The notes under the pieces were generated by a model. That model was not told the DNA's origin and made no database searches. It saw nothing but the letters and a program-made list of their open reading frames with translations. Of a stretch of 16,542 nucleotides of DNA, positions 348 through 11,077 are shown piece after piece. This DNA is from a virus. The stretch lies in the UHGV virus genome UHGV-1597668; one strand, written 5' to 3'. The position numbers and the translations under genes are program-made. Position 1 is the stretch's first letter. Each line of letters starts with the position of its first letter.

Positions 348-377
348 ATATTACACTAATAAATTTATTAGAGCAAT
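348..377 (-). promoter_or_regulatory. P1 C1-repressor operator-like site with overlapping leftward promoter
   Basis: Plus 361-377 AAATTTATTAGAGCAAT is the exact reverse complement of the P1 C1 operator consensus ATTGCTCTAATAAATTT (recalled from literature). On the minus strand TTGCTC (376-371) + 17 bp + TAATAT (353-348) forms a sigma70-like promoter. The site overlaps the dmt stop codon (368-370). Confidence 0.5.
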
Positions 378-2737
378 ATACCCAAAACGTCATGAGCTAC
401 ACCTCGAGTGTCTCCCTTACAAGACACAGAACGTCTGGCAAAAAGAGGTTCCACTCTGAAGCCACTGTCATGATAAAGCTCTCTGATGTTTGGCGCGCCA
501 CTGTTAGTAATGAGAACCTTTGCACCTCGACGATGAGCATCCGTCAACAGAGACACCAGGCGTTTTTGCTCTTCAAACTTAAAGTCATGACCGGAATAGT
601 TCGTGAATCCCTCTGTATTTGGAAGCGGTTCATACGGCGGATCGCAAAAGATGACATCTCCTTCTCCGGCAGCTTCAATCACCGCTGCAAAATCACCGCA
701 TACAAACTCAGACCGCCCTTCCGCACCGAGGAAGGCTTCCATCTCCTGTAATGGGAAATACGGAGTTTTATACTTCCCATAACCGACATTGAACTCACCG
801 GCCTGGTTGTAGCGCGTCAATCCGTTAAAACAATGTCGGTTCAGGAACAAAAACGCCGCTGCGCGATGTAAATCATCATAGACTTGTTTGTTAAACGCAT
901 TCCGTACTGCCAGGTATCCTTCCTGTGTGTTGTAGTCCTGGAAGAAACGATGTGCCAGAGTGATAAGTGAATGCGCCTCGCGTTGCAGAGTCTTGTAAAA
1001 GTTAATCAGGTCAGCATTCACATCATTTAGCAGATTTTCCTGGTATCCGGCATTCATGAAGACAGCTCCGCCACCAACGAAAGGTTCAATCAAGCGCTTC
1101 CCTTCTGGCAAATAGCGAAAGATTTGTTCCAGAACACCAAATTTTCCACCAGCCCATTTGAATATAGACCGTTCGAATTCTGCCGCTGGTTTAACTTTTC
1201 GCTCTTTTGTTTCACTTCCTTCTTTCTGCCGACATACGGCCTTAGTAATCTGATCGCCAATCCAGCGCATTACTGGTATTGCCATACTATTGCCGATCGC
1301 TTTGTAACGCGGTCCGTCAGCTGCAAGCATCGCGGCCTCTTCTTCGCTTAAATCTGGATAGTGATTGCGAAGATATGCCAGTTCATCTGAATTAACTTTT
1401 TTACGCTTTTCCGTAGGGATCAACGTATGCCCATCAGGAAAACCTTGCAGCCTTTCACATTCGACAGGGGTAAGACGGCGGACAGCTACTTCTGCGTTTC
1501 TTACTTCATAGCAAACAGCTGTTGGATTTTTAGCCATTAGAGATGGTGAAGTATTCTTAGTTGCAGCATGTTGTGTACCGCTCATACGCTCAGGAAAAGC
1601 CAATGTAACAAGATGCTCATGGCTTTCTTGCTCACGTGCCCGCAATGTACCATGCCCTTCTGACCAAAAACCTGCTCCTGTGCTGCTAAAAACGGCAAGA
1701 TCAGTGGCATCTTTAAAATCTCTTGCCTTTACTGTCGATGCGGTTTCATCGTCAATATATTCCCCAAATGCTGCCATCCTGAAAGCGTTTACGGCTTTCG
1801 TCGATTTCATACCGGGTGGCATGTCAGCGTGTAGGCATGGATTTAGGCTTTCGCCACTGATTGCAGCGCCATTTGCAATAATGGCGGAAGCGATTTCCTT
1901 CTTTTTTCGGCTCGGCGCAATATTCCGGCGCACGCCTTCGAACTCAAAAAGTACCGTTGCGGGATCGAGGTCTGTTCGAGCACTTGCGACAACAAACACG
2001 CATCGGCGTCGTTGTGCCACTCCGAAGTATTGGGCATCAAGGATTCTCCAGGCCACTTTTCGCTGCGGTCCATAAATACAACCACACTGCGGCCACTTTG
2101 GAGCATGGCAACCGGTTTTGATATCCCACCGCCAGAACGCGTTACTTTTTCCTGATTCAGGTCGATCACCTGGTTCGAATGGCGCATCTTCTCCAGCCAA
2201 TCCGGCAAGGAAACATCCGAAGGCGTTATCTGCCGATGACAAGACTCCTGGGACATTTTCCCAGACGATAACGGCTGGTTTGAGAAATGACTCAGCCCGT
2301 TTGTCGTCAATTGCATTTGCAAGCTCCACATACTTTAAAGTTAGCGCGCCACGCTCATCATCAAGCCCACCACGTAATCCAGCGATACTGAATGCCTGAC
2401 AGTTATGGACCACCGCACCATTGAGGATATAGGAATGATCACCTTCGACTTCTATGTTGTATACAGTATCTAGGCCTACCGATTTAAACTCTTTGACTGT
2501 TCGTAAAAGCATTCCATGAGCCAATCTTGATTTACGTGACAATTTCTGCGGGCAGATTGTTACCTGATAATAATTCCGTTGATTTACCACGCGATCCTCA
2601 ATCACTTTTTTGGGCTCAACTTCAATAAAGCTGACCGAAGAAACATAACCACAAGTCTGTGACAACTCCGCAACGCCCCAAGCAATACTCGCGGCTTCAA
2701 TTCCACTGCAAACAGATCCATAGCACAGCTCTTTCAC
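368..2737 (-). CDS. dmt: Bifunctional DNA methyltransferase: N-terminal C5-cytosine MTase domain fused to C-terminal Dam-type N6-adenine MTase domain (P1 Dmt-like)
   Basis: 788-aa ORF. C5-MTase motifs: CQAFSIAG (motif IV catalytic Cys), IVWENVPGV (ENV), [10 protein letters not shown] (motif VIII), [19 protein letters not shown] (IX), [10 protein letters not shown] (X). Dam motifs in the C-terminal ~270 aa: [42 protein letters not shown]. Start ATG overlaps the hrdC stop (ATGA), suggesting translational coupling. Confidence 0.9.
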
Positions 2738-3639
2738 TGCTTAGCCTCTCCACCAAGGGCATTTACCAGAGCATCAACCAGGCACGAAATTTCACTGGTC
2801 AACAGGAAGAAATCTGCGTCCAGTCGCTGCGCAACATCTTCACTATCAATATCAGAGTTCTGCTCAAGCAATTCATCCGCAAATTTGACGCTGGTAAGGC
2901 TGAAGTTATGGTCCAGTGTAAATTTAATGCGGTTCTGCCAGTCGAGTGCCAACTTAGTGACGAGCTTGCCAGCTTCCAGGTGTGTGGAAATTTCATCGCT
3001 TCCCAAATCCTGCTTTTTCACTCGGGCAATACCGCCATCCTCAAGCACTGCCTTAAGTTCTGCCGCATCCCCCATTTGAAATCCCTGTGGAGCACTACCA
3101 TCACGTACCCAGTCGGTCAGCGTTAATTCAATGGGATTTTCAACACTCAGGGGAACAACAGGAAGAGAACCCAGAGACTTACGCATAAGCGCGAGCATAT
3201 CCTCTGCCTGCCGCGCGCTGGCATTGATATAGATACGTTTAGTTGAACCATCGTAGATCGCCTGGATAACAGAAAACTTTGAAAAAGCCCGTGGCAGAAG
3301 AGAATGCAGAACTTCGTCTTTCAGGGAATCCTTCTCTGTTTTCTTCAGTTTACGCGCTTGTTCTTGCTCAAGTTTTTCAATTTTTTCTTGAATAGCTCGC
3401 TGGATAACCGGCGGGGGAAGAATTTTTGTTTCGCGCTTTGCTTCAACAAGGATAAAACCATTTCCATGCATAGCGATAACTTCGGAATTATCACCAAATG
3501 GCGATACAAAACCGAACTTGGCCATATCCTGACTACCGCATGGCGTGAAAAGGATCATTTTCTTTTTATCTTCTAAGTCGGTCAGATCCGCCTCACGAGA
3601 AAGTTTATAAATAGTAATGTTTTTCCAGTGCTTAAACAT
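2734..3639 (-). CDS. hrdC: RdgC-family recombination-associated protein (P1 HrdC-like)
   Basis: Near full-length similarity to E. coli RdgC as I recall it ([68 protein letters not shown]-terminal LGGEA). Start placed at internal ATG 3639 ([16 protein letters not shown], matching the RdgC N-terminus MLWFKNLMVYRLSRE) rather than the longest-ORF start at 3753. Confidence 0.9.
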
Positions 3640-3916
3640 GTTGTAACCCTTGAATATCAACCACAGAAAGCTCGTCTTTGTAGAAAAAGGCCAGGTTGTG
3701 GCCCCCCCTCGTTTGAGCGTATGAGCTGGGACCAATTTCGTTCTTCCAGACAAATGGCTTTAAATCCGTACGGCGAAGCATAAAAACGCGATTTGTTCCG
3801 CTCTGATTCCCAATGAGGCAAAAGCCTTCTTTCACCTTGATAGCCTGCAAGTTGTCGAGTTCACCGCTGGTTACACGGCTATCGAACTCCTTGCGGCTTA
3901 TTAGCTCCATCTGCAT
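3632..3916 (-). CDS. Hypothetical protein upstream of hrdC, 94 aa with this start (P1 uhr position)
   Basis: ORF in the six-frame track (3632..3988). Start chosen at ATG 3916, which has a GGAG Shine-Dalgarno 7 nt upstream; the upstream TTG/ATG starts overlap the promoter/operator region. Overlaps the hrdC start by 8 nt. No recognisable domain. Confidence 0.5.
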
Positions 3917-3987
3917 CTGACGACTCCAAACAAATGCCCATTGAAGGGCGATGGCTGAATGGTACCGAAAACACGACATAAAAAACA

Positions 3988-4004
3988 ATATTTATTAGAG
4001 CAAT
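3988..4004 (-). promoter_or_regulatory. P1 C1-repressor operator-like site upstream of the uhr-hrdC-dmt operon
   Basis: Minus strand reads ATTGCTCTAATAAATAT, 16/17 identical to consensus ATTGCTCTAATAAATTT. Lies in the divergent intergenic region just upstream of the leftward operon. Shares the 14-bp core TTTATTAGAGCAAT with the site at 361-377. Confidence 0.5.
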
Positions 4005-4031
4005 TATGCAATAGTTAACGCCATGTAGACC

Positions 4032-4052
4032 ACAAGTAACCTAAGTTAAAAT
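4032..4052 (+). promoter_or_regulatory. Candidate phage late-type promoter (ACAAGTAAC-N6-TAAAAT)
   Basis: Same architecture and spacing as the element at 11057-11077 (ACAAGTGAC-N6-TAAAAT) upstream of the gp23-like gene. Sits 33 nt upstream of the 4085 ORF. Confidence 0.3.
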
Positions 4053-4084
4053 AACGAAAACCAGAGCAAATAATTGGTGATGAC

Positions 4085-4369
4085 GTGGCAAGTATTGCAA
4101 CAAAAGACAGCATTTGTTCGGGGCACGGAGGATTCCCATCCAGGCCTCCTGTAGAGAGTGAACCACTACTTAAAGTCAACGGAGTCGAAGTGTTAGTTGA
4201 TGGTAAGCAATATGCACAGCATACCGATGGAAACAGTACGCACGGTGGGCAAGCTATATCAACCAGGGCATGGTTTACCGTCAATGGTAAAGGGGTCGTA
4301 TGCGTTGGTGACCCTGTTTCATGCGGCTCTACCGTAGCGTCAGGAGACGGCCTGGTTCAGGTAAGTTAG
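4085..4369 (+). CDS. PAAR-like small protein (94 aa, GTG start)
   Basis: Repeated Gly-rich beta-strand pattern typical of PAAR cone proteins: SGHGG..., KVNGVEVLVDG, STHGGQAIS, FTVNGKGVVCVGDPVSCGSTVASG. First gene of the rightward operon. Confidence 0.5.
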   Translation: MASIATKDSICSGHGGFPSRPPVESEPLLKVNGVEVLVDGKQYAQHTDGNSTHGGQAISTRAWFTVNGKGVVCVGDPVSCGSTVASGDGLVQVS

Positions 4370-4377
4370 GAGATATC

Positions 4378-5166
4378 ATGCTGGAAAAAGACTACCAGTT
4401 ATCCGCATATAAAAAATTGGCCGCTGCCGGTGGGATGAAAACACCTGGTGCCATAACATCGGCACGAAACAGTGCTAACACGGCAAAACAGCTTGCAGAA
4501 GAATTGACCGGATTAATTTTGGATACAATTGTCTATCCCGACACTATTACCAGCTATGTTTCAACGATCAGAACAACCACAGCCGGCTTAACGAACATTG
4601 GAGAACTGGCAACTAAGCACGCGGACCTGTTGGCTGGTTATGCAGATCTGTCAATGCTGCTTCAACTCGATATTGGTTGGGATGTTTACTGCCGTGCTAA
4701 TGAGCGAGAAGTTTCAGAACTGCCAATCTCTATTGCCATTGGTGATGTGACTATTACTAAATCGCTTGAGGACGCTGTAAACGCGCTTAATACATCAAGT
4801 TTAGTCGCTGCTATGGGGGAGATTAACCAGACCCTTAACACTGGCTCTGAAAGCTCGTCAGGTACTGGTTCAGGCGGCGGCACTGCCATTCCCCCACCAG
4901 CACTAACAGAAAAGCAAATTGAAGCTCTGAAAGTAGCAACTGAACAGTTTGGGGGAGTTTTCAACCAAACAACAGCGCCCACAGTTGCATTGCAACAGCA
5001 GTATGAACGGGCGAAGGAAAGCGCCAGCATAGCCATAACTGCTTATGGCCATGCTATTGGTACCGCGCTTGCGGAAGCATCAGCAAATAAGACCAGCACA
5101 GCCAGCGCAGTCGCCGCTTTGGTTCCTGATTCTGTTCTTGATGAATTAAACAAAGCGGCACAGTAA
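4378..5166 (+). CDS. Hypothetical Ala/Thr/Ser-rich protein, 262 aa
   Basis: ATG at 4378 with AGGAG Shine-Dalgarno 7 nt upstream, immediately after the PAAR-like gene's stop. Contains a Gly/Ser linker (SESSSGTGSGGGTAIPPP). No recognisable catalytic motif. Confidence 0.6.
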   Translation: MLEKDYQLSAYKKLAAAGGMKTPGAITSARNSANTAKQLAEELTGLILDTIVYPDTITSYVSTIRTTTAGLTNIGELATKHADLLAGYADLSMLLQLDIGWDVYCRANEREVSELPISIAIGDVTITKSLEDAVNALNTSSLVAAMGEINQTLNTGSESSSGTGSGGGTAIPPPALTEKQIEALKVATEQFGGVFNQTTAPTVALQQQYERAKESASIAITAYGHAIGTALAEASANKTSTASAVAALVPDSVLDELNKAAQ

Positions 5167-5205
5167 CAAAGGACTTCATTGATAATTTTTCTTCAGGAGG
5201 AAGAC

Positions 5206-5628
5206 ATGTCATTCTTTTCTACGTTAAAAACAGCTTTGTCTTTGAAGGAGAAACTTGCTGCTACTGGTGTTCTTGTTCTGATTTGCGCACTTGTTGGTGC
5301 TGGGTTTGCGTGGGAACGTCATCAGCTAAAGCAAGCCATGGAGAAAATTGGCAGTCTTGATCAGGCTGTTAAGGAACGTGATAAGTCAATAATGGATCTT
5401 AACCAGACCATTGAGACGATGAACAAAGCAGAGCAACATTTTCACAGCCAGGAAGTGAAAAATGAATCAGAACAAGCCAAGTATGCTGACAGGCAAATGG
5501 AACGAAAAGCTGAAGTTCAGAAACAACTTGTTGCGGCGGGTAATGTTCGCCAGCGTATTCCTGCTGACACTCAGCGGTTGCTCCGGGAGTCGATCAGCGA
5601 ATTTAACGCCGACGCCGACAAAGGTTAA
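5206..5628 (+). CDS. i-spanin-like (Rz-like) type II inner-membrane protein, 140 aa
   Basis: AGGAGG Shine-Dalgarno before ATG 5206. N-terminal transmembrane helix (TGVLVLICALVGAGFAW) followed by a charged periplasmic coiled-coil-like region. Its 3' part overlaps the lipoprotein ORF in another frame. Confidence 0.5.
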   Translation: MSFFSTLKTALSLKEKLAATGVLVLICALVGAGFAWERHQLKQAMEKIGSLDQAVKERDKSIMDLNQTIETMNKAEQHFHSQEVKNESEQAKYADRQMERKAEVQKQLVAAGNVRQRIPADTQRLLRESISEFNADADKG

Positions 5629-5794
5629 CCACCCTGCCCCAAAAAGTGCATTTATGTGCAGGATGCCAGAGTTTAGCAGTGAATATTTTGATGATCTGCC
5701 AGCGTATATCCTCGATACAGAAACGATGCTGATGGGGATTAACAGGAAGAATCACAACGTTAATGATTACAACCGAGCTATTAGCGGTAACTAA
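5462..5794 (+). CDS. o-spanin-like (Rz1-like) outer-membrane lipoprotein, overlapping the 3' end of the i-spanin-like gene
   Basis: Signal peptide with lipobox MFASVFLLTLSG|C, Pro-rich mature N-terminus (TPTPTKVNHPAPK). Start ambiguous (5462 with GGAAG Shine-Dalgarno, or internal ATG 5483/5543). Architecture resembles overlapped spanin pairs such as P2 lysB/lysC. Confidence 0.5.
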   Translation: MNQNKPSMLTGKWNEKLKFRNNLLRRVMFASVFLLTLSGCSGSRSANLTPTPTKVNHPAPKSAFMCRMPEFSSEYFDDLPAYILDTETMLMGINRKNHNVNDYNRAISGN

Positions 5795-5805
5795 AAGGGA
5801 TTTTT

Positions 5806-6198
5806 ATGTCTGATAAAGTAACAGTAAAGCAAACTATCAACAAAGCGACTTCAATCTACAAAATTGAGCAAATCACTGTTGGCAAGCCAGGATCTGAACA
5901 ATACCGTCGTGCTTTCGAGCTTGCCGATCAGCTTGGTTTAAAATACCCGGATTGCATCGAGCATGTATTTCCGACCTATGCTGATGAGCAATGTACTCAT
6001 GTTCTTACCGAAGAGGATTTTTTCAGCACTGAAGAACGAGAAGGCGTTGATCGCTGCATTGGTGTGATTTGCTCTTCAGTGAGTTATGAGTTATTCCCTA
6101 ATGTCCATGAAGATGGTGGTATTGGATACCAATTCCTGTACGAAGGCGATGAGCTTAAATGTTATGAACATGGTCTTCTTATCGAAAGCGTAGAATAA
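5806..6198 (+). CDS. Hypothetical protein, 130 aa (P1 upfA position)
   Basis: ATG with AAAGGGA Shine-Dalgarno; followed by a hairpin terminator. No recognisable domain. Confidence 0.6.
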   Translation: MSDKVTVKQTINKATSIYKIEQITVGKPGSEQYRRAFELADQLGLKYPDCIEHVFPTYADEQCTHVLTEEDFFSTEEREGVDRCIGVICSSVSYELFPNVHEDGGIGYQFLYEGDELKCYEHGLLIESVE

Positions 6199-6211
6199 TA
6201 TGACTTCCTTC

Positions 6212-6236
6212 CAACCGGCTTTGTTGGCCGGTTTAT
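6212..6236 (+). terminator. Hairpin terminator after the rightward operon
   Basis: AACCGGC-TTTGTTG-GCCGGTT stem-loop followed by TTTATT. Confidence 0.45.
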
Positions 6237-6240
6237 TCAA

Positions 6241-6347
6241 CTTATCCACAGCATAGATCCAATAAACAGATCCTAAAGAGAACCTAGGAAGATCCAAAGA
6301 AGATCCCGGATCGCTGTAAGCCGCGTCATTACTGGCCTGAAATGGGA
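6241..6347. other. oriR-like plasmid replication origin: DnaA box plus clustered GATC (Dam) sites
   Basis: Perfect DnaA box TTATCCACA (6241-6249). Six GATC sites within ~95 bp (6255, 6268, 6290, 6301, 6308, 6344), four of them in the heptamer context AGATCC. Immediately upstream of the iteron array. Confidence 0.6.
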
Positions 6348-6354
6348 TCAACAT

Positions 6355-6460
6355 TGACTATACGCGATTTTATGTTGACTGTGCACGATTTATTGTTGAC
6401 TGCACGCGATTTATTGTTGACTATACGCGACAGAAACATTGACTGTAAGCGATTTTAGAG
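6355..6460 (+). repeat. incC-like iteron array: five direct ~21-bp repeats, core TTGACTnnnnGCGATTT
   Basis: TTGACTATACGCGATTTTATG (6355), TTGACTGTGCACGATTTATTG (6376), TTGACTGCACGCGATTTATTG (6397), TTGACTATACGCGACAGAAAC (6418), TTGACTGTAAGCGATTTTAGA (6440), at regular 21-22 bp spacing. Confidence 0.8.
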
Positions 6461-6533
6461 TCTGAATATTCACAGCTGTTGATAACAGCCATCCAAATTG
6501 ACGTCAGGCCGCGCCACACATGGAGAAACTGCG

Positions 6534-7418
6534 ATGCCGGAAGAAAGTAAAGGCTTCCTTAGCGTTGAAGAAGTTGCAGGAAATACAGGAGAAATCCACA
6601 GCCTGAAGCCCAATAACAACAGCACTATACAACCCATCGCTTTGTTGCGCTTAGGTGTGTTTGTGCCAACCTTAAAATCTACCAATGTGGCGCTACGTCG
6701 CGGATCGTCAGTTACTACAAACACAACGAACGCAACCGAAGAACTATCAAGCCTCAAAATTGTTGAGCAGGAAGGCTATGAGGGAATTGAAATTCATGGT
6801 CCACGCCTGGATATGGATACTGATTTTAAGGTGTGGGTGGGCATAACCTCCGCGTTGTTTGACTACGCACCTGATGATGACGGCATAATCACCCTGCCAT
6901 TCTCCGAGTTTGCCGATCGATGCGGCTATCCACGTAAGCGCCTTTCAAAGGCGTTCCGTAAAAGTATTGATGACTCTCTGACACGCATTCAGCAGACAGT
7001 TGTCAAATTCCGCTTCCCGGCGGCAAAAGGTCATCTCAATAACATTAACGTCAACTTGTTGGCATATAGCAGCCTGAATACCGAGCTTGATGTTATCGAG
7101 ATCCAGCCGCAGAAACAGCTATCTGAACTTTACTATGTTGACTATAAGCGAATCCTGAAGCTGAAGATGCTGGATAAACTAGGGCGCAAAGAGACGGCCA
7201 AGGTACTGTATACATTCTTTGAGGCTCTACCCGCCAACCCGGCACCTGTCAGCATTGAGCGCCTTAGAGCGAGGCTTAATCTCAAATCATCCGTTAGCGT
7301 GCAAAATAGCGTTATCAGAAAAGCCATGAAAGATTTGGAAGCTATTGAATATCTTAAATTTTCAGAGATAAAAAACGGCAGGAAAATCGGCTTCCAGATC
7401 CATAAGCGCAATCCATAA
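6534..7418 (+). CDS. repA: Iteron-binding replication initiator RepA (P1 RepA family)
   Basis: Flanked by iteron arrays on both sides. Similarity to P1 RepA as recalled (QPIALLRLGVFVP, HGPRLDMDTDFKVWVG, YTFFEALPANPAPVSIERLRARL). Start set at ATG 6534 (GGAG Shine-Dalgarno) rather than TTG 6498. Confidence 0.85.
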   Translation: MPEESKGFLSVEEVAGNTGEIHSLKPNNNSTIQPIALLRLGVFVPTLKSTNVALRRGSSVTTNTTNATEELSSLKIVEQEGYEGIEIHGPRLDMDTDFKVWVGITSALFDYAPDDDGIITLPFSEFADRCGYPRKRLSKAFRKSIDDSLTRIQQTVVKFRFPAAKGHLNNINVNLLAYSSLNTELDVIEIQPQKQLSELYYVDYKRILKLKMLDKLGRKETAKVLYTFFEALPANPAPVSIERLRARLNLKSSVSVQNSVIRKAMKDLEAIEYLKFSEIKNGRKIGFQIHKRNP

Positions 7419-7710: not shown

Positions 7711-8520
7711 ATGCAAGAAGAGAAACAACACTACCTCTACGTTCTGGTGCCAGAGAACGGAGATACTTTTAAAATCGGCATTTCATGTGGTCCATTGGCA
7801 CGGTTTAAAGGGCTACAAGTGAGTCCCGATTTTGCGCTTTCACGGGTCTATCGTGGTACGCGTTTGGCAATGGTTAATCTTGAGCGGGCTTTACACGCAA
7901 CCTTTTTCCCCTGGAATGCGCCGTGGGAGAAAAGCGCCGGTGGCGGGCATACTGAATGGTTTACACGAGAGTGTCTTGATAAGGTTTTGGCTTATATCGA
8001 ATATCTAAATGATATGTGGGGAGGGATTCTCGAGCGCATTAAGTCGAATGATTTACTTCAGCGTCCAGTAGATGCTGCTTGCTCTTTCGAAAAAGAGCTG
8101 GATGTTACTTCTATCGTGACTTTCAAAGATGACGCAGGAATGAGGGACGTGGCTTATGTCTCCATATCTGGCTATGAACCGGACGCGATCCGCGCTCAAT
8201 GTGAATTGCTGAAAGCAATGTTTATGCTTCGGACTAAATATCCCTGGGATACAGGGCGGGTGTGCTTCCCTATGGAAGAGTTAACCGCCACCATTGATTC
8301 CCAGCTTTACCACGATAATCCAGAGAAGTTTTTTAGCCTTTTAGCCGATAATGGGCTTAACTGTGTGTCCGGGCTGGGGCGAAGTAGAATCCAACATGCC
8401 TCGCTCTTCGGTCCCTTCTTTTACGATCGACACGGGTACTTTGAGGCTGAACTTCCGGCGCTTACGCGTGCTATAGATACTATCGATTTCGAACGATTAT
8501 TCGCTGCTCTTAGCAAATAA
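7711..8520 (+). CDS. T5orf172 / GIY-YIG-superfamily-like domain protein with unknown C-terminal domain, 269 aa
   Basis: N-terminal ~95 aa match the T5orf172-type pattern: YLYVL....G..FKIGIS, conserved Arg (ARFKGLQ), LERALHATF, GHTEWF. C-terminal ~170 aa has no recognisable motif. Own Rho-independent terminator downstream. Confidence 0.65.
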   Translation: MQEEKQHYLYVLVPENGDTFKIGISCGPLARFKGLQVSPDFALSRVYRGTRLAMVNLERALHATFFPWNAPWEKSAGGGHTEWFTRECLDKVLAYIEYLNDMWGGILERIKSNDLLQRPVDAACSFEKELDVTSIVTFKDDAGMRDVAYVSISGYEPDAIRAQCELLKAMFMLRTKYPWDTGRVCFPMEELTATIDSQLYHDNPEKFFSLLADNGLNCVSGLGRSRIQHASLFGPFFYDRHGYFEAELPALTRAIDTIDFERLFAALSK

Positions 8521-11048: not shown

Positions 11049-11077
11049 GAAAGTCAACAAGTGACTTTCAATAAAAT
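11049..11077 (+). promoter_or_regulatory. Candidate late-type promoter with inverted repeat (AAAGTCA-ACAAG-TGACTTT) and TAAAAT -10
   Basis: Inverted repeat with 7-bp arms at 11049-11067; ACAAGTGAC-N6-TAAAAT at 11057-11077. About 50 nt upstream of the gp23-like start. Confidence 0.35.

Follow-up and report, generated by a model that had tools for sequence, protein, structure and literature searches.

Phage P1 is a workhorse among transducing phages, and a factor altering its penetration of hosts with different LPS would be practically useful. In T4, the tip protein gp5.4 carries an Fe site composed of three His and one Cys (PMC12407873), and it was HHpred that linked the P1 protein UpfC to gp5.4 in 2022 (PMC9024508). 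Two cryo-EM studies of P1, from 2025 and 2026, have modelled or built a monomeric UpfC tip on the gp5 trimer (bioRxiv 10.1101/2025.07.21.665459; PMC12810830, PDB 9vyi). One of them assigned the neighbouring gene product, UpfB, as a “tripod” in which three trimers sit on the tip, using medium-resolution density and an AlphaFold3 trimer (PMC12810830); UpfB goes unmentioned in the other baseplate study (bioRxiv 10.1101/2025.07.21.665459). The evidence for UpfB in the virion is thin, because it comes from one paper with medium-resolution density, no UpfB chain was found among PDB sequences and the protein is not listed by LC-MS/MS of purified P1 virions (gp5, gp26 and UpfC were missed as well). 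Deletion or knock-down of upfC or upfB still allows plaque formation (studies of 2022 and 2023); a delta-upfB phage plaques normally, the CRISPRi knock-down is viable and no phenotype was reported for deletion of either gene. Dispensability discriminates poorly, since plaques form without either gene although UpfC is part of the virion. For the place of UpfC in the virion, the UpfB tripod and the dispensability of both genes, we rely here on the literature.

The DNA analysed in this work, hereafter the window, is a stretch of 16,542 nucleotides of a viral genome (UHGV-1597668). P1-group phages (P1, P7, SJ46 and RCS47) match it at about 94.6-97.5% nucleotide identity, in a match that covers the annotated genes upfC, upfB, ppfA, mlp and upfA, and the neighbours are arranged as in P1, with uhr, hrdC and dmt preceding the pair and ppfA, mlp, upfA, oriR and repA following it. 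The window belongs to a phage-plasmid of the P1 type, and its two ORFs are upfC and upfB of P1, both genuine; they are the same genes as those of P1 (RefSeq P1_gp066 and P1_gp065, with chain A of PDB 9vyi being UpfC), in a close relative that differs from P1 by a T5orf172 ORF between repA and parA and by a variant dmt. A preliminary description of this DNA had suggested that the two ORFs may match the P1 upfC/upfB position, which the P1-group match and the annotations bear out. It had also considered their products uncharacterised, which has been overtaken by the match of UpfC to gp5.4 (PMC9024508) and the placement of both proteins by cryo-EM (PMC12810830). The identification of the genes was right, and the claim of novelty is outdated. 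The features considered are the following.

3988..4004, minus strand: C1 repressor operator (P1 Odmt/Op68) of the divergent uhr-hrdC-dmt operon, ATATTTATTAGAGCAAT, identical to the P1 operator (L001 3389-3405)
4034..4052, plus strand: candidate Lpa-dependent late promoter of upfC, with -22 box AAGTAACCT, a 4-nt spacer and -10 TAAAAT
4085..4369, plus strand: upfC, GTG start, 94-aa PAAR-repeat spike-tip protein, homologue of T4 gp5.4
4378..5166, plus strand: upfB, 262-aa acidic all-helical protein of PHROG 1559, reported as a “tripod” on the spike tip
5206..5628, plus strand: ppfA of P1, predicted inner-membrane spanin (Rz-like), PHROG 89 at 1.2e-25
5462..5794, plus strand: mlp of P1, predicted outer-membrane lipoprotein spanin (Rz1-like), PHROG 30284 and 456
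5806..6198, plus strand: upfA, annotated in P1, 130-aa protein of PHROG 1453 (unknown function) at 4e-60

The proposal that the 94-aa product is a PAAR cone protein stood up well. UpfC differs at only 2 of 94 residues from the “UpfC” chain 9vyi_A (2.5e-60), and it is matched by PHROG 281 “PAAR motif” (2e-30), by NCBIfam T6SS_PAAR_dom over its full length (5e-9), by T4 gp5.4 (6.5e-8 for 5iv5_ZA and 9e-8 for 4ku0_D) and by the T6SS PAAR protein VCA0105 (4jiv_D, 3e-4). The search suggested for it, with the Pfam model PAAR_motif (PF05488), gave a more nuanced answer; the motif is detected in UpfC at 26.5 bits and E 7e-6, yet the gathering score of 27 is just missed, by 0.5 bit. The same model matched 10/10 orthologues adjoining UpfB homologues at E <= 0.01, with a best value of 7.6e-12. 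The equivalog cut-off of NF033420, which is 124, was not reached (36.2 bits, alignment positions 4-93 of 94). Residues H14, H46, H53 and C80 are invariant across 10 UpfC orthologues and align with His and Cys residues of T4 gp5.4, and judged from these alignments UpfC appears to retain the three-His, one-Cys metal site. We regard the identity of UpfC, its fold family and its putative metal ligands as established at this level. The window holds no T6SS genes, the genes around upfC being those of a phage and a plasmid, and no gp5-like spike gene was found within it.

The second product agrees with the preliminary description in being a 262-aa protein rich in Ala (15.6%), Thr (11.1%) and Ser (8.4%), in which residues 156-168 form the Gly/Ser stretch GSESSSGTGSGGG; it is acidic (pI 4.6) with a mass of ~27 kDa. 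Its ATG at 4378 lies 8 nt after the upfC stop and is preceded by AGGAG 6 nt upstream, whereas the RefSeq annotation of P1 upfB is a 281-aa ORF beginning within upfC. As every UpfB homologue begins with ML(D/E/N) at that position, down to ~20% identity, and PHROG 1559 aligns full-length (2.9e-133, residues 1-262 on profile positions 1-263 of 263), these comparisons mark 4378 rather than the RefSeq P1 start as the true start of upfB. The family comprises 89 representatives, with full-length members of 236-265 aa; UpfB has a single-domain architecture and belongs to PHROG 1559 over its full length, and the distant members P0135, P0117, P0107 and P0098 likewise match this PHROG. Searches of Pfam, NCBIfam and PDB sequences, queried both with UpfB alone and with a profile of 59 sequences, returned no relatives but only coiled-coil noise (designed SNAREs, coronavirus HR1 and Lpp), and no relatives were found outside P1-like contigs. 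The distant members P0135 and P0107 gave no match by tblastn among GenBank phages, which means that none of the distant UpfB lineages is represented by an isolated phage.

No protein of the block evolves as fast as UpfB. It is 89.7% identical to that of P1, compared with 98-99.5% for its neighbours, and in D6 the identity falls to 27% for UpfB as against 58% for UpfC. The 27 substitutions relative to P1 are clustered in residues 161-215; as synonymous changes in upfB are raised too (29 versus 27 non-synonymous), a locally diverged or recombinant segment is indicated, and not clear positive selection. An AlphaFold2 model built from 59 sequences (pLDDT 96, pTM 0.90, all alpha) confidently predicts a compact all-helical fold. 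The conserved N-terminus had been considered as a disordered anchor peptide, owing to low pLDDT with a 20-sequence alignment, and this was rejected as it folds confidently into the bundle with 59 sequences. Foldseek of the first model against PDB and BFVD returned nothing at E <= 1e-3; the phage proteins with DUF7217, which gave weak BFVD matches (E 3e-3 to 5e-2, TM < 0.5) and no sequence support, were rejected as relatives, and no paper mentioning DUF7217 was found. UpfB has neither a membrane segment nor a signal peptide, and no hydrophobic segment is present, the Kyte-Doolittle values over 19 residues reaching 1.0 at most.

Downstream of upfB, the spanin-like pair of the preliminary description is confirmed. 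PpfA has an N-terminal hydrophobic membrane helix followed by a charged and helical remainder, Mlp has the lipobox LLTLSGC, and mlp overlaps the 3′ end of ppfA in a different frame; by these features the two are predicted to form an overlapped two-component spanin (Rz/Rz1) pair. The last same-strand gene of the cluster ahead of oriR is upfA, which is non-essential in P1. From ~6.2 kb onward come the plasmid origin, repA and parAB, and the location of the pair beside the plasmid replication region was described correctly.

This location was also described as lying away from tail genes, which holds only superficially for P1, where early genes under C1 control lie between upfC and the late operon 26-25-7-24-6-5, whose end is 8.6 kb away, and does not extend to its relatives. 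Across 12 P1-related lineages, gp6, gp5, PAAR, UpfB, gp23 and gp22 are collinear. Four of them (L007, L011, L012 and L020) carry an uninterrupted series of gp6-like, gp5-like, PAAR and UpfB genes, in which the pair comes right after the genes for hub and spike and the gp5 and gp6 homologues match those of P1 at 8e-29 and 9e-60, respectively; counting L014 and L019 as well, the PAAR gene is next to the spike gene in six. PAAR and UpfB are neighbours, -1 to 9 nt apart, in 9/12 lineages, and this holds to as little as ~22% UpfB identity. In the Salmonella group, UpfC and UpfB are followed by Rz, gp23 and gp22 without a replicon, and in the window upfB and gp23 are 5.9 kb apart. In L008, L014 and L019, ~3 kb of other genes lie between PAAR and UpfB, with UpfB directly upstream of the capsid gene. 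Read from this gene order, oriR, repA and parAB appear as cargo inserted in a late backbone whose conserved order is gp6, gp5, UpfC, UpfB, lysis genes, gp23 and gp22. This accounts for structural genes being found beside oriR, and the adjacency of the pair to the replicon is without functional significance. The stop-start coupling of UpfB to PAAR in 9/12 lineages lends the tripod assignment indirect support, but as evidence for a link between UpfB and the tip, the synteny is not decisive.

In P1, the early block (dbn, ban, tRNAs, tci, upl, plp, dmt, hrdC and uhr) separates gene 5 from upfC, and for this reason the pair would need a promoter of its own. The C1 operator at 3988..4004 forms the left edge of the upfC regulatory region, and between it and the GTG a candidate Lpa-type site was located, ending 33 nt before the upfC start. 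Using a weight matrix built from the 7 P1 late promoters annotated in RefSeq, the site scores 14.3 bits, rank 2 in the window behind LP23 (11059-11077, 24.4 bits). The chance of such a score is ~1e-5 per position; in a shuffled 16.5-kb window, the best chance match has a mean of 12.6 and a 95th percentile of 16.6 bits, a range into which the 14.3 bits fall. A P1-like relative from Salmonella has an 18.4-bit site at the identical 33-nt offset, whereas the corresponding site of P1 reaches only 9.7 bits and is unannotated, the -22 box being nearer to consensus in the window phage than in P1. In L003, a hairpin with a T-run separates the candidate promoter from the ATG. A generic scan for sigma-70 promoters and terminators over 3600-6600 found such sites no more commonly than in shuffled sequence. 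We infer a late promoter for upfC at 4034-4052, and it is most likely that the upfC-upfB pair is expressed late from this Lpa-type promoter of its own.

Taken together, UpfC would be a single-domain PAAR-repeat cone, held together by an apical metal site of three His and one Cys, of which one copy would cap the gp5 spike, a trimeric beta-helix with a blunt end, at the baseplate centre. As the sheath contracts, this sharpened tip would enter the host envelope ahead of the rest of the virion. UpfB would be made from the same message, directly after UpfC, and, following the one cryo-EM study, three of its trimers would hang from the tip as the “tripod”. By analogy with T4 gp5.4, UpfC and UpfB probably affect the efficiency or the host range of envelope penetration, a role of the pair that would be conditional. 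We find this overall account, with UpfC as spike cap, UpfB as its tip partner, late expression and the replicon as cargo, to be a likely one. Perhaps UpfB is a tip appendage restricted to the P1 supergroup, with nine fast-evolving helical-bundle copies arranged on the pseudo-threefold PAAR cone and acting at first envelope contact as a sheddable shield or sensor, or as a membrane-active bundle; this more specific picture is tentative. If it is true, upfB and upfC would be host-range or fitness genes that are essential under certain conditions, such as on hosts whose LPS core is altered, and not dispensable ORFs.

Other roles for UpfB have to be weighed against that of a tip partner. The gene order of the three lineages in which UpfB is ~3 kb from PAAR and 176-232 nt upstream of the gp23 homologue (L008, L014 and L019) would suit a non-essential, scaffold-like accessory of head assembly, encoded before the major capsid gene, which would leave UpfC alone in the tail. 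An acidic, Ala-rich and all-helical protein of this size (pI 4.6, ~27 kDa) has the typical look of a scaffolding protein, its absence from the LC-MS/MS virion list is what is expected if a scaffold exits the head, and a weak Phage_scaffold match (E 0.013) occurs in 1/59 family members. This match is at chance level, however, and the compact AlphaFold2 fold (pTM 0.90) is unlike an extended scaffold. Moreover, the P1 scaffold is thought to be the gp23 N-terminus, and upfB can be deleted or knocked down by CRISPRi with the phage remaining viable. Adjacency to gp23 is confined to 3/12 lineages, with 5.9 kb between the genes in the window; in the other 9/12 the translation of UpfB is coupled to that of PAAR, and the stretch up to gp23 holds lysis, replicon or other genes. 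Since cryo-EM also fits the UpfB trimer to tip density (PMC12810830), we consider a head accessory unlikely.

UpfB as a partner of the UpfC tip is also to be preferred over two readings that draw on its immediate neighbours. T6SS PAAR proteins often carry or recruit effectors (PMC12407873), and the preliminary description noted that a PAAR gene often precedes one; UpfB would then ride the tip into the periplasm or cytoplasm and act on the host there, with membranes or a defence system as possible targets, and its rank as the fastest-evolving protein of the block is a pattern fitting host-interacting proteins. That expectation is not borne out here, as 0/59 UpfB members have an enzymatic or toxin domain, no fusion to PAAR or to any other domain occurs among the 89 family representatives, and the genes that come next encode spanins or an endolysin and none is immunity-like. 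UpfB also has no hydrophobic segment (Kyte-Doolittle maximum 1.0), and synonymous changes are raised alongside the others (29 versus 27), which makes an effector quite improbable. The same downstream genes could place UpfB in the lysis cassette, as a holin, antiholin or spanin accessory unrelated to the spike: spanins directly follow it in the P1 group, L003 and L009, a small protein and an endolysin follow it in L007, L011, L012 and L020, and in L014 it comes directly after a five-gene lysis cassette. Yet L008 and L019 have no lysis gene beside UpfB, the protein lacks a membrane segment or signal peptide, and P1 lysis is already accounted for by the lyz and lyd genes and the spanins. Stop-start coupling joins UpfB to PAAR and not to the downstream gene, and the tripod assignment speaks against a lysis role as well (PMC12810830), so that such a role is hardly credible.

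Overall, there is little novelty for the field in these genes. The spike-tip identity of UpfC is already published and deposited, and the structural assignment of UpfB is published, although weakly supported. What is added here is the collinear backbone of 12 lineages with the replicon as cargo, the candidate Lpa-type promoter and the corrected upfB start. The comparative map, at which the P1 replicon and the ban-dmt early block appear as cargo in a late backbone, can help the annotation of phage-plasmids, including that of the wrong RefSeq upfB start. As the placement of UpfB in the virion comes from a single medium-resolution fit, it offers a cheap target for a decisive experiment.

Among known systems, T4 gp5.4 (PDB 4ku0 and 5iv5) closely resembles UpfC; both are monomeric PAAR-repeat cones of ~95 aa on a trimeric gp5 beta-helix, both have three-His, one-Cys ligands and both are dispensable for plaques. 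UpfC and gp5.4 are the only pair of P1 and T4 tail proteins that BLAST detects. Differences are that P1 gp5 has no lysozyme domain, unlike T4 gp5, that T4 has no UpfB-like gene after 5.4 and that a phenotype has been demonstrated for gp5.4 on hosts with deep-rough LPS. With the T6SS PAAR proteins (VCA0105, PDB 4jiv; c1882; PF05488; NF033420), UpfC shares the fold family and the sharpening of a trimeric beta-helical spike; unlike them, it is a phage virion protein, and UpfB has no features of T6SS effectors, adaptors or Eag chaperones. The spikes P2 gpV and phi92 gp138 are, like that of P1, contractile-tail spikes with a metal-stabilised pointed tip that is driven into the periplasm. In these two phages, however, an iron-loaded apex with HxH motifs is fused to the spike polypeptide, whereas the P1 tip is encoded by a separate PAAR-repeat gene located 8.6 kb from the spike gene.

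A megablast search with positions 3600-6400 matched 21 P1-group phage records, including P1, P7, SJ46, RCS47, JL22 and Ro157c2YLVW, 17 of them with at least 80% query coverage and 94.7-97.5% identity. The RefSeq P1 annotation projected onto this match gives the following arrangement, with the same gene order in the ORF list of the window:

Minus strand: dmt, hrdC and uhr
Between uhr and upfC: C1 operator Odmt and promoter Pdmt
Plus strand: upfC, upfB, ppfA, mlp, upfA, oriR, repA, parA and parB, then genes 23, 22 and 21
4085-4369, plus strand: upfC, 94 aa, GTG start
4378-5166, plus strand: upfB, 262 aa

Both ORFs of the preliminary description are present, and its suggestion that they correspond to upfC/upfB of P1 was right. 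The spanin-like pair it had noticed after the 262-aa protein is ppfA/mlp, a genuine overlapped spanin pair downstream of upfB.

By Pfam alone UpfC is a borderline PAAR protein (26.5 bits against PAAR_motif, gathering score 27). Nevertheless, the proposal that the 94-aa product is of the PAAR cone type is borne out by PHROG 281 (the "PAAR motif" family, 2e-30), by PDB chain 9vyi_A, itself named "UpfC" and differing at 2 of 94 residues, and by PDB sequence matches to T4 gp5.4 (5iv5, 4ku0; ~1e-7). Vibrio VCA0105 (4jiv) was matched at 3e-4 in the same search, and NCBIfam T6SS_PAAR_dom at 5e-9 over positions 4-93 of 94, with a score far under the equivalog cut-off, as expected of a phage protein. 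In T4 gp5.4 one Cys and three His coordinate Fe tetrahedrally, and one of these His, H14, is required to bind gp5 (PMC12407873). The UpfC residues aligned to these ligands, H14, H46, H53 and C80, do not vary among the ten PAAR proteins recovered beside UpfB homologues (34-98% identity), each of which also matches PAAR_motif. It is essentially certain that UpfC is a metal-stabilised PAAR cone atop the trimeric gp5 spike. The second-best PDB match, 9f4b chain BA (97 aa, 3.7e-10), is named "Phospholipase", aligns like T4 gp5.4 and is probably a gp5.4-type spike tip with a carried-over annotation.

In RefSeq P1, upfB (P1_gp065) is annotated as 281 aa with a start within upfC, the extra stretch corresponding to 4321-4377. 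The 262-aa start at 4378, as first described, is the better one, since AGGAG lies 6 nt upstream of its ATG, PHROG 1559 (the UpfB family) aligns its profile positions 1-263 with residues 1-262, and the start is conserved in 59 homologues; ML(D/E/N) begins every homologue at the equivalent position, down to ~20% identity. The description as an Ala/Thr/Ser-rich protein carrying a Gly/Ser linker is borne out by the composition (Ala 15.6%, Thr 11.1%, Ser 8.4%, pI 4.6) and by GSESSSGTGSGGG at residues 156-168.

Searches of Pfam, NCBIfam and PDB sequences found no relative of UpfB, whether the query was the single sequence or a profile of 59. A word-index search found it on P1-like contigs of ~90-97 kb only, and a profile search run exhaustively over 1.84 billion representatives defined a family of 89 proteins of one architecture, the full-length ones being 236-265 aa. 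The AlphaFold2 model rose from pLDDT 82 with a 20-sequence alignment to pLDDT 96 and pTM 0.90 with 59 diverse sequences. The predicted fold is compact and all-helical, with main helices at 5-16, 24-46, 55-87, 91-107, 116-155 (three pieces), 178-196 and 199-236, and the Gly/Ser/Pro linker as its sole softer part.

The main addition of the present analysis is a comparative gene map, for which homologues of gp6, gp5, PAAR, UpfB, gp23 and gp22 were located by HMMs at loci of divergent UpfB members. Gene order was the same, with all of these genes on a single strand, in each of the 12 lineages whose flanking sequence sufficed. PAAR and UpfB stand next to each other in 9 of the 12, with -1 to 9 nt between stop and start, and in four loci (L007, L011, L012, L020) gp6-like, gp5-like, PAAR and UpfB genes form an unbroken series. 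Judged by sequence (gp5 32% identical to that of P1, 8e-29; gp6 29%; gp23 33%), these four are true but distant P1 relatives. The Salmonella group (L002-L004) has PAAR, UpfB, Rz, gp23 and gp22 without a replicon in between. The P1 late operon (LP26, 26, 25, 7, 24, 6, 5) ends 8.6 kb from upfC, and the gap is occupied by early genes under C1 control (dbn, ban, tRNAs, tci, upl, plp, dmt, hrdC, uhr). The position beside the replicon and away from tail genes holds only superficially for P1; in relatives the PAAR/UpfB pair comes straight after gp6 and gp5. There is a conserved late backbone with cargo at three soft spots (5/upfC, upfC/upfB and upfB/23), and this collinearity indicates that the replicon-side position results from inserted cargo rather than from a plasmid-related function.

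A lysis cassette comes directly after UpfB or falls between PAAR and UpfB in distant relatives (L007 6828-8188, L011 4430-5799, L014 3530-6001), with an endolysin of GH108, amidase_3 or GH19/lysozyme type and small proteins. In P1 the spanin pair alone remains at the upfB spot, lyz and the lyd genes being elsewhere, so that the P1 spanins look like remains of a cassette at its ancestral position.

Two other places in the window also differ from P1. Dmt methyltransferase (368-2737, minus strand) diverges between C5-methylase motifs I and IV, where residues ~21-112 form a 92-aa segment ending |CQAFS in place of 57 aa of P1, with loss of the Pro of the PCQ motif. Its match to Pfam Intein_splicing is below threshold (E 0.002) and confined to the C-terminal splicing block. 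It looks like an intein remnant, which may have inactivated the C5 half; Ro157c2YLVW, RCS47 and one P1 isolate carry the same variant (99% identity). The other is an ORF between repA/incA and parA:

7711-8520, plus strand: T5orf172 (GIY-YIG-like) ORF, 269 aa (27.6 bits, E 4e-6)

The P1 reference lacks a gene at this spot, and repA and parA are 558 bp apart in P1 as against 1271 bp in the window; the ORF may be an insertion of homing-endonuclease-like type into the plasmid maintenance region.

No upfC promoter is annotated in RefSeq P1. Seven annotated late promoters of the Lpa-dependent type (AAGTNACTT, four bases, TANNNT) were combined into a weight matrix, which recovered LP23 at 11059-11077 (24.4 bits) and whose second-best site in the window was:

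4034-4052, plus strand: candidate late promoter, AAGTAACCT-aagt-TAAAAT, 14.3 bits

The site ends 33 nt upstream of the upfC start. Its score has a per-position chance of ~1e-5, yet the best hits that arise by chance in a whole shuffled window span this value. An 18.4-bit site occurs at the same offset in the Salmonella relative L003, and P1 reaches only 9.7 bits at the equivalent position. A late promoter of upfC here is plausible. Downstream of the strong promoter-like site AAGTAACTTtccaTACACT in L003 (5662-5712) come a perfect hairpin of 7 bp (CCCACAG...CTGTGGG) and then, next to the ATG of PAAR, a T-run, which places a terminator-like element between a candidate promoter and its gene.

At each evolutionary distance compared, UpfB has diverged more than any other protein of the block: 89.7% identity to P1 against 97.9-99.5% for UpfC, PpfA, gp23 and gp22; 44% to the Salmonella group (UpfC 68%, gp23 57%); and 27% to D6 (UpfC 58%, gp23 43%). 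Relative to P1 there are 27 amino-acid and 29 synonymous changes, 14 of the 27 within 55 residues (161-215; 4861-5022), which looks like a locally diverged segment and not clear positive selection.

The statement that both products are uncharacterised is out of date, having been overtaken by work of 2022-2026. UpfC was matched to gp5.4 by HHpred, with one copy per virion predicted, and went undetected by LC-MS/MS of P1 virions; in-frame upfC deletion and upfB deletion each still allowed plaques (Gonzales et al. 2022, PMC9024508). None of upfC, upfB, ppfA, mlp and upfA scored as essential in genome-wide CRISPRi (PMC10695390). The gp5/gp6/UpfC spike was modelled in a 2025 preprint (bioRxiv 10.1101/2025.07.21.665459), and UpfC was then built as a monomeric tip on trimeric gp5 (PLoS Pathogens 2026, PMC12810830). 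In the latter study UpfB was assigned to the tip as a "tripod" of three trimers, solely from a medium-resolution map into which an AlphaFold3 trimer was fitted, membrane piercing being the authors' speculation. The earlier identification was correct and most of its interpretation holds, although the finding is not new.

Perhaps UpfB could be a scaffold-like head-assembly accessory; an insertion separates it from PAAR in L008, L014 and L019, leaving it directly upstream of gp23, and this context taken alone is compatible with a head-related role. We give this a low probability, as we do a T6SS-effector-like cargo and a lysis accessory; sequence analysis found no hydrophobic segment or signal peptide in UpfB, and none of the 89 family proteins is fused to another domain. 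The best-supported account has three parts, of which that concerning UpfB rests on one structural paper and on synteny across relatives. UpfC forms the metal-stabilised cone on gp5, UpfB would be its co-translated helical partner at the tip, and both, dispensable on laboratory hosts, would be expressed late. Under some conditions they would probably improve envelope penetration, an analogy drawn from the need for T4 gp5.4 on deep-rough LPS hosts.
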